A stretch of 31,202 nt of DNA from Promethearchaeota archaeon Loki_b31 (GCA_005222975.1 NJBI01000041.1:1-31202), one strand, 5' to 3'; counted from the stretch's first letter, positions 2,749-12,485 are shown. Notes: generated by a model not told the origin, from the sequence alone. Numbers and translations are program-made.

Positions 2749-3699
2749 TTAAATCTGTTTAAGAATGGTTTCTTTTATATCATCAATAAAGGATTTGTTT
2801 AACACATTATCCTTTTCGAAAATTTGAGGATATTTAAACCCAGCTCGAACTTTATGACCTCCTCCTTTAAAGGATTTCGCAAAATTCCTACAGTTAATAA
2901 AATCGCTATGGATTATTATTTCATTGTGTCGAGTATCAACCCCAATACGAGCTTTCGCTTCGGGAAATTTCTCTTTCAATAAATAGGTTATTTTTCCTCC
3001 CCCAATTTTTGCCCATGAAATAATAATTTTACCAAAAGATTTCATCGGAATAGATTTAGCGTGATTTAAAGCGAACGATGACTCTTCTTCGTGCCATTTT
3101 TTTAATATTTTTAGTTGCGAACTAAACCAGGAATTCTCAAAATCGCCTTGAGACAATAATTCAACTATTCTACGTTTATTTTGATCGTTATGAGCTCCAC
3201 GGTTAAAACCGATAATTAACTGCAAATCTGACGCTAATTTATATATATTCGTCCTAAAATCAGTATCTCTGGCAAATTCAGCGATTCTTGATGCTATGGG
3301 GTCATTTGGTAAATAATAATCTTTAACGATTTCAGCAGCACATTTTTTAGTGTCATTTGAGTAAATGTGAACTAATCTTCTTAGTTTTTCTTTTATTAAA
3401 TCGTCTACAATGTGATGGTCGAACCACGATATCTTACATCCTTGTTTTTTCGCATTTTTTAAAACAGAAAACAAATCTACAAAATCTTCGTTAAAGCCTA
3501 TATCAGAAATTATTACTTGTGAAGGGAGAGATTCTGAATCTAAGATATTGCTAATTTTTTCAACGAAATCAATGTAATGAGCGTAAAAACATCTGATCTC
3601 ATCTGGATGGATTTCTTGGTTTAAATTGAAATATCGTTGAATAATTGCTTGTGACCCTAATCCATCGAGATCATGTTCATGGGTAATAGAAACGATCAT
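2749..3699 (-). CDS. DHH/DHHA1 family phosphoesterase
   Basis: HEHDLDG, ISDIG, WFDHH and C-terminal GGGH motifs. Confidence 0.9.
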   Translation of the reverse strand: MIVSITHEHDLDGLGSQAIIQRYFNLNQEIHPDEIRCFYAHYIDFVEKISNILDSESLPSQVIISDIGFNEDFVDLFSVLKNAKKQGCKISWFDHHIVDDLIKEKLRRLVHIYSNDTKKCAAEIVKDYYLPNDPIASRIAEFARDTDFRTNIYKLASDLQLIIGFNRGAHNDQNKRRIVELLSQGDFENSWFSSQLKILKKWHEEESSFALNHAKSIPMKSFGKIIISWAKIGGGKITYLLKEKFPEAKARIGVDTRHNEIIIHSDFINCRNFAKSFKGGGHKVRAGFKYPQIFEKDNVLNKSFIDDIKETILKQI

Positions 3700-4340: not shown

Positions 4341-4440
4341 GGCCCGATGCGAGAATTGAACTCGCCTCTAGGGATTCACAGTCCCCAATACTAACCATTG
4401 TACCAATCTCTCGAGAGAGATCGTCTATACCAACCGGGCC
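4341..4440 (-). tRNA. tRNA-His(GUG) with 27-nt intron; genomic G-1; CCA not encoded
   Basis: Minus strand: acceptor stem GCCCGGT/ATCGGGC, G-1 opposite C73, anticodon arm GGGGA-CTGTGAA-TCCCT (anticodon at 4377-4379), T arm GCGAG-TTCAATT-CTCGC. The D arm becomes GTAT-AGTGGTTA-GTAT after removing 4398-4424. Confidence 0.95.
4398..4424 (-). other. tRNA intron at non-canonical position 15/16 (relaxed BHB)
   Basis: GUAU [AG^A] CGAUCUCU-CUCG-AGAGAUUG GUAC [AA^U]: 4-bp central helix, 3-nt bulge and 8-bp intron stem. Confidence 0.85.
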
Positions 4441-10291: not shown

Positions 10292-10345
10292 TTATAATCC
10301 TACAGGACCATTACTATAGATTTCATATGCTTCATCTACTGAAGC
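10292..10345 (-). pseudogene. Displaced duplicate of the lsrF 3' end (17 codons + stop)
   Basis: Encodes [17 protein letters not shown] versus [17 protein letters not shown] at 11671-11724. Hand count: 15/17 aa and 40/54 nt identical. Confidence 0.9.
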
Positions 10346-10370
10346 TTTTCGTAATTTCCAATTTAATAAG

Positions 10371-11567
10371 TTAATTGGCTTCTTTTTCGTATTCTTCAAA
10401 CTTCTTTCCTTTAAGTAGTTTATTCCAATAATGTGGTTCCGGTCTCTTTATTTCCCATTTATCACAGGTTTCCCTTACAATCTTTGGATAGGTGTGAAAG
10501 ATTTCGGAAATATTTCTAATCGGTATTTTCCAAACTAATTTAGATAATATTTCCTTGCTAATTGAATCTTCAAAAAGGATTCTTGATGGTACTCGAAAAT
10601 ATTTTCGTTTTCTAGGTAAACTATCCAGGTAATTATCCAACATCTCATTAAAGAGTTTTGCTCCTAAACTTAAATAATAATTTCCAACACCATCAGGAAT
10701 AATTTGATGTTTAAACTCAAATTTTCTTTTTATCTCTTCTAGAATAGGCTTACTCCCTATATGAAACTGATTTTTTCCTTCTTTTCCATCTCCATCAAAA
10801 AAACCAAGTAGAAATGCTAAATCTAACTCACGACTTTTTAATATAGGAAATGTTGTAAGTTTAAGTCCGCTTGGGACATGACCTAATTTTTTCAAATCCT
10901 TTACTATTTTTGAACACTTAAATCTTATACGGATGTAAGTCTTCAACCCGGATTCTTTCATTATATTCCTTGAAGATTTGTAATCTGGATTTAAACCTAA
11001 ATCTTTTATAAATTTATCAATTAATAATTCATCTTTATTGCTTAAATCAAGTGTAACAGCATCATTCTTCCCTAAATACACTTCTGCCCATAAAAAACCA
11101 AGCCAATATGCTTTGTTTTTTGTATCAATATTCTCAAAATAATCCATTTTAATATTTGGATGAAAATTCAATATTTTTTTCCCATTTTTTCTTGAAATTG
11201 GGAGATCATTATTTTTTATTCGATATTTTTTAATTAATGTTGTTATACTGACCGCTTTATTCCCAAGTATAGATATCAATTTTTCTTCCCATTCTTTTAA
11301 TTCATCTTTAGCGATTTTGTAATTAAAGTTTCCTTCTCGTATATTGCGTTTTATTCTTTTTATTCGATTCTTATATCGGCAAAGAAGAAAACTTAAATTA
11401 GTATCTGGTAAAGATTTGTTATAATACATTCTCATTTCATGACCATCTATAACTAAATGAGATGGTATAATATTTATTAATACATTTCTTAAATCTTCTA
11501 TAAATTCTTTAGTTGAATATTGATTATTATAGGATTTGATATCTAACTTTTTAGGATTTTGATTCAT
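10371..11567 (-). CDS. Free-standing two-motif LAGLIDADG homing-endonuclease-like protein with C-terminal HTH-like domain
   Basis: KAYWLGFLWAEVYLG and AFLLGFFDGDG motifs; C-terminal SKEILSKLVWKIPIRNISEIF...CDKWEIKRP. No intein splicing motifs seen. Confidence 0.82.
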   Translation of the reverse strand: MNQNPKKLDIKSYNNQYSTKEFIEDLRNVLINIIPSHLVIDGHEMRMYYNKSLPDTNLSFLLCRYKNRIKRIKRNIREGNFNYKIAKDELKEWEEKLISILGNKAVSITTLIKKYRIKNNDLPISRKNGKKILNFHPNIKMDYFENIDTKNKAYWLGFLWAEVYLGKNDAVTLDLSNKDELLIDKFIKDLGLNPDYKSSRNIMKESGLKTYIRIRFKCSKIVKDLKKLGHVPSGLKLTTFPILKSRELDLAFLLGFFDGDGKEGKNQFHIGSKPILEEIKRKFEFKHQIIPDGVGNYYLSLGAKLFNEMLDNYLDSLPRKRKYFRVPSRILFEDSISKEILSKLVWKIPIRNISEIFHTYPKIVRETCDKWEIKRPEPHYWNKLLKGKKFEEYEKEAN

Positions 11568-11670: not shown

Positions 11671-12485
11671 TTAAAGGCCAACTGGACCTTTTTGGTATAT
11701 TTCATAAGCTTCGTCAACTGAAGCATTTTCATGTACAATAGCTCTAACTGCTTTAATCATACCGATGGGCTTGTCAGATTGGAAGATATTTCTTCCCATA
11801 TGTGCGCTTATAATTATGAATAATAATTATAATCTACGCCAACAGCTCCAGCAGTAATGGCATTCTTTGCCATTTGTAAAGCTTCCCTCTCCGGTGTTTT
11901 TTTTCCTCCCGCAATAACTACAGGTACAGGACAAATACTTGTTACATTTTCAAAGTTCTCACAATAGTATGTTTTTACAAATGTAGCACCTAACTCCGCG
12001 GCCATTCTACTAGCCATTCCTAAGTAACGGTGATCTCTAACCATTTCCCTACCAACTGCGGTGACCGCTAAAGTAGGAATTCCATATTCTTGCCCCCAAT
12101 TTACTAATTTCGATAAATTCATTAAGCTTTGCTTTTCAAACGCTCCACCGACAAAAATAGAGCAAGTTATTGCTGAAACATTTAATCTTATGGCATCTTC
12201 AATAGTTACATTAATTTCTTCATTTGAAAGGTCTTTTAGCATGCTAGCTCCAGCCGATACTCTTAATACTATCGGAATATCAAAATCAGGCGAAACACAA
12301 CTTCTTAACATCCCTCGAGTAAGCATTAAAGCATCAGCATATTGAAATAACGGATTTAAATCTCCAAAACATTTTAATTGACCAGGTATATTACCAAAAT
12401 ATCCATGATCGACGGCAAGCATTACACAACGCCCAGATTTAGGTTTGATAATCCTTGCTAATCGATTTTGCATTCCCCAATCCAT
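11671..12485 (-). CDS. lsrF: LsrF-type class I aldolase/thiolase, intron-containing: join(complement 11834..12485, 11671..11801), 260 aa
   Basis: [34 protein letters not shown] and VIAGGKK in exon 1. Exon 2 gives (D)[42 protein letters not shown]. 652 + 131 = 783 nt = 261 codons. Confidence 0.9.
11802..11833 (-). other. Predicted 32-nt BHB (tRNA-type) intron in a protein-coding gene
   Basis: UG GCGU [AG^A] UUAUAAUUAU-UAUUC-AUAAUUAUAA GCGC [AC^A] UA. Removal gives GGC GTA GAT ATG GGA AGA (GVDMGR). Confidence 0.88.

Follow-up and report, generated by a model that had tools for sequence, protein, structure and literature searches.

Some bulge-helix-bulge (BHB) introns of archaeal ribosomal RNA (rRNA) and transfer RNA (tRNA) carry LAGLIDADG homing endonuclease genes. 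In phages, group I introns without an open reading frame (ORF) are served by free-standing homing endonucleases, an arrangement known as collaborative homing and found in T-even phages and in cyanophage psbA. In archaeal coding sequence, splicing by the tRNA-splicing enzymes has been confirmed, in the literature we searched, only for cbf5 of Crenarchaeota (PMC2738675). The cbf5 introns of Desulfurococcales and Sulfolobales interrupt a precursor of messenger RNA (pre-mRNA), are 16-44 bp long and often have a relaxed BHB motif (Watanabe 2002; Yokobori 2009, PMC2738675); a hetero-oligomeric EndA severs each bulge between its bases 2 and 3, and gains as well as losses of these introns have occurred (PMC2738675). 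An earlier, sequence-only reading of the DNA considered here had named cbf5 as the well-documented archaeal mRNA case. Those authors state that confirmation was lacking for any other protein gene. For protein genes of Asgard archaea, we found no published BHB intron in the literature searched. In this paper we describe a 32-nt insert in the aldolase gene lsrF of Promethearchaeota archaeon Loki_b31, which lies in a stretch of 31,202 nucleotides (NJBI01000041.1:1-31202; the window), and which is very probably a BHB intron.

The insert resembles the cbf5 introns in several ways. Both are short BHB introns without an ORF in coding sequence (16-44 bp in cbf5, 30-32 nt in lsrF and its relatives), in both the cut (predicted in lsrF) comes right after the second base of a bulge and is the work of a hetero-oligomeric EndA, the motif is often relaxed, gain and loss among relatives are patchy, and the site follows the first base of an Asp codon. 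Unlike cbf5, lsrF is a metabolic gene unrelated to RNA and the case is in Asgard archaea (Promethearchaeota); the lsrF family has three intron sites, with up to three introns per species, and a LAGLIDADG-like gene, together with a 3' exon that was replaced, is physically linked to the intron. Splicing of cbf5 was demonstrated with complementary DNA, whereas that of lsrF is deduced from genomes. The lsrF intron works like the cbf5 intron but is another intron.

The gene lies on the minus strand. Exon 1 (11834..12485) comprises 217 codons and the G of an Asp codon and encodes most of a DeoC/DhnA-type aldolase barrel; the mini-intron (11802..11833) is 32 nt long, has no ORF and is recognised by its sequence, its absence from intronless orthologs, homologous inserts and covariation; exon 2 (11671..11801) completes the Asp codon with AU and adds 42 codons (MGRNIFQ...GPVGL) plus a stop, and its product is the conserved G-R-N-I-F-Q loop with the C-terminal helix. 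The sequence-only reading had described an interrupted gene, and the ORF list bears this out: the ORF at 12485..11814 (minus strand) has 223 aa and terminates in GVDYNYYS and a stop, and the missing C-terminus, MGRNIFQ...GPVGL and a stop, is a 42-aa ORF at 11799..11671 (minus strand). Excision of the 32 nt from 11833 to 11802 does give GTA GAT ATG GGA AGA and a 260-aa product. With a slash at the cut, here and below, the predicted spliced mRNA junction is GGCGUAG/AUAUGGGA, and the product reads ...AGAVGVDMGRNIFQ... around it. The spliced product aligns with intact orthologs from residue 1 to 260 with zero gaps, and exon 1 is 96-98% identical to intronless orthologs such as that of genome G017.

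Exon 1 alone scores 321 bits on the NCBIfam equivalog NF006081 (cut-off 297), as expected from the proposed lsrF identity, and also matches Pfam PF01791 (DeoC/LacD aldolase); relatives are annotated at source as 3-hydroxy-5-phosphonooxypentane-2,4-dione thiolase. By these matches the host gene is an LsrF / DhnA-type class I aldolase. The 42-aa exon 2 has no Pfam match. Other lsrF matches in the genome are paralogs at only 27-31% identity, and lsrF is therefore single copy. Annotation pipelines had been suspected of mis-calling such genes, and public gene calls do include truncated forms of LsrF of 216-236 aa; these calls were searched as a 90%-clustered set, which cannot resolve the spliced form. 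The nearest bacterial homologs (L105-L107; Elusimicrobia, Binatia) are 65% identical. A lsrF fragment with 94% identity lies on a contig binned as a Nanopelagicaceae bacterium (L104, DATKTW010000093.1), which is probably mis-binned Asgard DNA.

In about 65 distinct intronless alleles the codons GTN GAY ATG GG are uninterrupted. An insert of 30 or 32 nt at the same codon is present in 13 distinct alleles from 13 species, belonging to five genera (g1, g16, g21, g22, g23) of one family; this amounts to at least 5 of the 42 genomes of the genus and at least 13 of the 154 of the order, both lower bounds because the search pattern demands typical flanks. Matches to this pattern outside lsrF (in G038 and G073) were discarded as chance matches. 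The 32-nt inserts introduce a frameshift and the 30-nt inserts an in-frame TAA. Downstream of them, the 42 codons of exon 2 are intact to the normal stop in all 12 intron-bearing alleles with full-length data. The median pairwise ratio of non-synonymous to synonymous substitution rates (dN/dS) in exon 2 is 0.086 among intron-bearing alleles, with dS near saturation, versus 0.073 among intronless alleles, and exon 2 of Loki_b31 differs from that of G050 by 2 synonymous and 0 non-synonymous changes. By these estimates exon 2 is under purifying selection, with an omega of about 0.09. In one further ortholog (L096, JAUWRB010000062.1) two in-frame TAA stand where all other orthologs have GAG/GAA, in the GG-E-F-E-KQ region, the rest being conserved; judged by its sequence, this lsrF is a pseudogene or a sequencing problem.

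The proposed BHB motif (11799..11841, minus strand) was examined by sequence, by folding and by pair counts on the 13 alleles. All of the pairs put forward in the sequence-only reading are present in the sequence. The central helix pairs GCGU (11839-11836) with GCGC (11807-11804) and is flanked by the bulges AGA (11835-11833) and ACA (11803-11801). Within the intron there is a perfect 10-bp stem (11832-11823 with 11817-11808) closed by the loop UAUUC, and on the exon side are the outer pairs G11840-U11800 and U11841-A11799. The first base of the intron is the third base of the 5' bulge, and the intron ends with the first two bases of the 3' bulge. The predicted minimum free energy (MFE) fold of RNAfold (-11.7 kcal/mol, z = -2.0) contains the stem with its loop, the AGA bulge and the central helix as proposed.

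Pair statistics were obtained from an alignment (A1) of the 13 intron-bearing alleles with 500 shuffles. Cells of the alignment are paired in 89% of cases vs 81% in the shuffles, and slid registers are all only 24-50% paired; by element, pairing is 98% in the central helix, 91% in the stem and 65% in the outer helix. Double-sided changes occur in 8 of the 16 proposed pairs, which was reached by 1 of the 500 shuffles, and the covariation score by none, although these shuffle statistics overstate independence because the 13 alleles are related and part of their ancestry is common through transfer. The exon-intron pair 16-49, the second pair of the central helix, is C-G in eight alleles, U-A in three and A-U in two. 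On the exon side this pair involves the third base of a Gly codon, a synonymous position, and the three types of pair occur in different genera. RNAalifold recovers the same central helix and stem independently. Orthologous inserts had been suggested as a place to look for covariation, and the compensatory changes found there do preserve the BHB.

Across the 13 alleles the 5' half of the motif is canonical, with the central helix, a 3-nt bulge and the intron hairpin. The AGA of the 5' bulge is invariant and is formed in the MFE of most alleles. The intron-side helix, h', has 9-11 bp and double-sided changes in 7 of its 10 pairs. On the other side, a 3' bulge (A-N-A) can be formed in all 13 alleles by way of an isolated G-U or G-C pair. 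The exon-side outer helix, h, has this first pair in 13 of 13 alleles and a second pair in 4 of 13; the 2-bp form UG with UA that had been proposed is not conserved, its U-A pair being limited to those 4 alleles. A longer outer helix (CUGU with AUGG) is possible and consists of invariant coding sequence. The lsrF motif is a partly relaxed hBHBh', with a textbook 5' half and a weak 3' bulge and outer helix. Hetero-oligomeric EndAs accept relaxed BHB substrates (PMC2738675; PMC5829648).

Several observations weigh against a BHB intron, in addition to the relatedness of the alleles. On the 3' side the MFE fold differs from the proposal, having an A bulge, the pairs C-G/A-U and a U bulge; the strict two-bulge form lies 5-6 kcal/mol above the MFE in the allele of Loki_b31 and 3-6 across alleles; in the MFE of most alleles the 3' splice site falls in a 2x4 internal loop or in other pairing; and in two alleles, G019 and G022, the energy model gives a poor BHB fold. 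The outer helix is beyond the covariation test because its bases are coding-constrained exon. BHB-like folds are also common here. Under a strict definition of hBHBh' (h of at least 2 bp, H of 4 bp and h' of at least 6 bp) this AT-rich genome has 16,932 matches, or 1.7e-5 per position and length. A search of public metagenome contigs with the spliced-junction pattern gave zero matches. The case exceeds chance because the BHB cut sites coincide, with a 1-nt A/A ambiguity, with the insert boundaries that the intronless orthologs define independently, and not because the fold is rare.

The window is contig C99 of a genome of 3.52 Mb in 99 contigs with 31.5% G+C. The host had been guessed to be an Asgard archaeon, and near-identical orthologs are indeed found in metagenome-assembled genomes (MAGs) of Promethearchaeota / Promethearchaeia. 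EndA (PF01974) is encoded by two paralogs, in the regions C13:36116-36340 and C79:5005-5253, as ORFs of about 200 aa with 97.7 and 70.5 bits, both above the Pfam cut-off; as read from the translations, the Tyr/His/Lys pattern typical of catalytic subunits is kept in one of them, and the other is without the His. RtcB is present as one canonical copy (562 bits). Asgard EndA is reported to be an (alpha-beta)2 enzyme with a loop that confers broad specificity (PMC5829648), and the present pair, one with and one without the catalytic His, fits such an enzyme by its sequence.

ARAGORN detects only 14 tRNAs in the whole genome, a low number in keeping with the heavy interruption described for Asgard tRNA genes (bioRxiv 10.64898/2026.10.13.758758). 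At 4346-4440 (minus strand) of the window, 7 kb from the lsrF intron, there is an interrupted tRNA-His gene (anticodon GTG), matched by Rfam at model positions 5-66 only. An insert of about 27 nt interrupts its D-loop region and has the same build as the lsrF intron: a 4-bp helix (GUAU with GUAC), an AG/A bulge and a hairpin. ARAGORN reports zero tRNA in the window and misses this gene, whereas Rfam sees the partial tRNA as its sole match there. Non-canonical archaeal tRNA BHB introns (bioRxiv 10.64898/2026.10.13.758758; PMC5829648) are like the lsrF intron in motif, size range and presumed enzymes; lsrF differs in that the host RNA is an mRNA, without a tRNA body to help recognition, and in that the exon strand of the central helix doubles as coding sequence.

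The sequence-only reading had proposed a functional mRNA BHB intron in a gene unrelated to RNA, and this is supported by inserts at one site in 13 species, by covariation preserving the BHB, by purifying selection on exon 2 and by the presence of EndA and RtcB. We put the probability that the 32-nt insert is a genuine archaeal BHB intron in the lsrF coding sequence at roughly 0.85. From the anatomy of the gene, its fit to intronless orthologs, the compensatory changes, the selection on exon 2 and the enzymes encoded, we infer cleavage and ligation of the lsrF pre-mRNA themselves. On this model lsrF would be transcribed straight through the insert. In the pre-mRNA the exon GCGU, at the end of the Gly-Val codons, would pair with the GCGC near the 3' end of the intron; this helix would be flanked by the AG/A bulge followed by the 10-bp intron hairpin, and by the AC/A bulge followed by the weak exon-exon helix. 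A heteromeric (alpha-beta)2 EndA would cut after the second base of each bulge, G11834 and C11802, and RtcB would ligate the exons, restoring G/AU (Asp218) and the frame, with the intron probably freed as a 32-nt circle. The 260-aa aldolase would then be made from spliced mRNA only.

Group I and group II introns have a ribozyme core of some hundreds of nucleotides; a self-splicing intron of these kinds was rejected here, the insert having 32 nt and Rfam seeing just the tRNA in the window. An assembly or sequencing artefact, which might be feared in a MAG of 99 contigs with an estimated contamination of 6%, is vanishingly improbable: the same or a homologous insert is carried by 13 independently assembled genomes from different studies, and we consider this explanation excluded because of these assemblies. 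A slender chance remains for a dead gene, that is, for a small palindromic mobile element or an insertion scar that inactivated lsrF and folds like a BHB by accident. The insert is an AT-rich inverted repeat in a genome where BHB-like folds are frequent, the allele is recent in its lineage, with exon 1 just 3.7% from the intronless G017, and the L096 ortholog does look broken. A dead gene would, however, hardly keep an intact exon 2 at an omega of about 0.09 across alleles near synonymous saturation, or an exon-intron helix maintained by compensatory changes; the genome has no second copy of lsrF, and the comparison with exon 2 of G050, with its 2 synonymous and 0 non-synonymous changes, speaks against this reading too. 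Selection on exon 2 would likewise be expected if the enzyme were split, with the 223-aa exon 1 product and a 42-aa peptide made separately and assembling, or if the truncated protein worked alone. Exon 2 does start exactly at a conserved Met codon, but this Met is equally conserved in intronless alleles and so did not arise as a start codon along with the insert. A ribosome-binding-like sequence is absent before it, in this genome and in relatives inserts of the same build stand in motifs without a following Met (for example DEPT/TG of an ABC ATPase, described below), and the covariation of the BHB and the invariant AGA bulge would be unaccounted for. We consider a split enzyme very improbable.

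Translational recoding, by frameshift, stop read-through or hairpin hopping and without RNA splicing, would need two mechanisms for one homologous element, since the 30-nt alleles require read-through and the 32-nt alleles a frameshift. A stable hairpin does follow the break directly, the exon-2 frame of the 32-nt allele is open from the fourth insert codon, with a -1 shift in UAU-AAU-UAU-UAU formally possible, and cbf5 cases were formerly confused with frameshifting (PMC2738675). The hop codons, though, are unmatched in the 13 alleles, GAU standing before the insert and CAU, AAU or AAC before the AUG, and a bypass of the T4 gene 60 type was rejected on this mismatch of take-off and landing codons. 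Recoding would also lengthen the conserved GVD-MGRN loop by 10-11 residues, an extension seen in none of the orthologs, and would leave unexplained the covariation of a 4-bp exon-intron helix with 3-nt bulges; it is extremely improbable. There is finally a small chance that the insert is removed other than by EndA and RtcB, for example because part of the population excises it from its DNA, or through a different pair of RNase and ligase. Some intronless alleles have the flanks of intron-bearing ones (GTA GAY ATGGGAAGAAAT) and are their closest kin, and precise loss at the DNA level therefore does happen over evolutionary time; the 3' half of the motif is also relaxed. The features that are conserved are nonetheless exactly those that EndA reads: a helix of 4 bp, bulges of 3 nt and a cut behind base 2 of each bulge. 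The tRNA-His insert 7 kb away repeats this build, and both EndA and RtcB are encoded in the genome.

Downstream of the interrupted gene lies a free-standing ORF of 398 aa (10371..11567, minus strand) that we call LAGLIDADG-like from its motifs and a feature search. It begins about 100 nt behind the lsrF stop and 230 nt from the intron, and its insertion point is 75 nt downstream of the intron site. Among 5 homologs, two stretches that resemble the motif (YWLGFLWAEVY and LAFLLGFFDGDGKEG) do not vary. Pfam at default thresholds gives zero matches for the ORF; under the cut-off, LAGLIDADG_3 is a weak match in 3 of the 5 homologs (E = 0.011-0.015; 0.015 for the ORF itself). An Atlas feature search gave 0.92, the best ten named matches all being LAGLIDADG, and a PDB sequence search returned chance matches only. 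The AlphaFold model, built on a 5-sequence alignment, has a predicted local distance difference test (pLDDT) of 56 and of less than 50 over the presumed LAGLIDADG core, and was left unused for fold search. Seven paralogs of the gene (on C34, C5, C96 twice, C18, C32 and C38) are 28-34% identical to it, and zero candidates with a strict BHB and an ORF were found within 3 kb of them.

Behind this ORF stands a remnant of the native lsrF 3' end (10292..10349, minus strand), the last 17 codons and the stop, recognised by comparison with G017, from whose intronless 3' end it differs by about 2 nt. Divergence between the two alleles jumps at the intron, exon 1 differing at 3.7% of sites and exon 2 at 21.4%; we rely on this jump, the tree of exon 2 (126 nt) being weakly resolved. 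In the exon 1 tree the intron-bearing alleles are dispersed. Intact homologs of the ORF, 51-57% identical, lie beside lsrF in G019, G074, G084 and G143, all four of them intron-bearing, and the layout of new end, ORF and old end is repeated in G019 and G074, the two that were checked. In G143 the homolog is convergent to lsrF. The ORF is absent from five intron-bearing species with enough flank, and from every one of the 79 intronless loci whose downstream sequence spans 1300 nt or more. The Val codon before the site is GTA in 12 of 12 intron-bearing alleles and exon 2 starts with ATGGGAAGAAAT in 11 of 12, vs 13 of 67 intronless alleles; intron-bearing alleles have as their nearest relatives several intronless alleles with those flanks, among them L012, L075/L078/L082 and L092.

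The 398-aa ORF is probably a homing endonuclease gene that travels with the intron-bearing 3' end. The distribution fits a spread as DNA, in which gene conversion took the flanks along by co-conversion; the endonuclease gene would later have been lost and, in some cases, the intron precisely deleted. In the lineage of Loki_b31, the intron, a foreign exon 2 and the LAGLIDADG-like gene would have entered a G017-like allele by gene conversion. It is possible, but on balance doubtful, that mini-intron, replaced 3' exon and free-standing gene form one composite homing unit. The endonuclease would then cut lsrF alleles without intron and cassette, and repair would copy the block and so spread an ORF-less intron in trans; the intron might ride along by co-conversion or might protect its allele, as in collaborative homing. 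Phage collaborative homing is alike in having an ORF-less intron and a separate endonuclease gene beside the host gene, jointly absent from other alleles, and differs in the domain of life and in self-splicing group I introns, as opposed to a protein-spliced BHB. With the rRNA and tRNA BHB introns that carry LAGLIDADG genes the locus shares the association with a LAGLIDADG-type gene, the patchy distribution and the co-conversion of flanking exon. It differs from them in that the gene is outside the intron, behind the stop codon of the host gene, and between the new and the old copy of that gene's 3' end.

The lsrF family has further sites. Site A, in other genera, is a 30-nt insert after Asp-His-Gly with a central helix of CAUG with CAUG and a covarying stem, present in 6 of 154 genomes (inserts at L071, L072, L074, L080 and L087; further-site loci also at L137-L142). 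Site C is a 36-nt insert at AGG/KK in G075 (L080, about 3560-3600), and with this added third site lsrF of G075 therefore carries three introns. The hairpin loop WAUUC occurs in several of the mini-introns, as UAUUC in the allele of Loki_b31 (window 11818-11822, minus strand) and as AAUUC in G019 and at site A; many of these introns begin with A-CUAUAA and end with UUAUAG. Such common loop and end sequences could mean that introns at different sites have one origin, or that the enzyme prefers certain sequences.

A scan of the genome for further split genes had also been suggested, and it found two besides lsrF. The scan for a strict BHB together with an ORF gave 359 candidates, 14 of which were read through; 3 of these held up, namely lsrF, an ABC ATPase and a thiolase-like gene, a lower bound because the scan covered strict motifs only. 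Most candidates were adjacent genes bridged by chance folds (for example uL3/uL4 and HdrD-like/HdrA) and were rejected. By ortholog comparison, the ABC ATPase has a 31-nt BHB insert (C98:16601-16631 = L123:1602-1632, plus strand) that splits its Walker B / D-loop motif as DEPT/TG; it is exactly absent from G017, G021, G005, G014, G002, G008 and G012, and G019 and G007 have it with a helix pair altered. The thiolase-like gene, likewise from ortholog comparison, has a 30-nt BHB insert (C58:47823-47852 = L124:1324-1353, plus strand), with Thiolase_N on a 56-aa exon 1 and Thiolase_C on exon 2, and is shorter by exactly 30 nt in 7 of 7 matched relatives.

If the insert is a BHB intron, a core metabolic gene of an Asgard archaeon depends on BHB splicing. 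With three sites in lsrF and more split genes in the genome, this lineage would splice mRNA as a matter of routine when expressing its genes. This bears on annotation, as gene callers give truncated proteins or pseudogenes at such loci and metabolic reconstructions from MAGs are distorted as a result. The importance of the lsrF case lies mainly in its belonging to a larger group of such introns in protein genes of Asgard archaea, unreported in the literature searched. Asgard archaea are the closest prokaryotic kin of eukaryotes. The locus is a datable recent acquisition together with a LAGLIDADG-like gene and makes the mobility of BHB introns testable; should the composite homing unit prove true, the BHB introns of Asgard protein genes would form a population in active movement, with conserved codons as its targets, and would not be relics.

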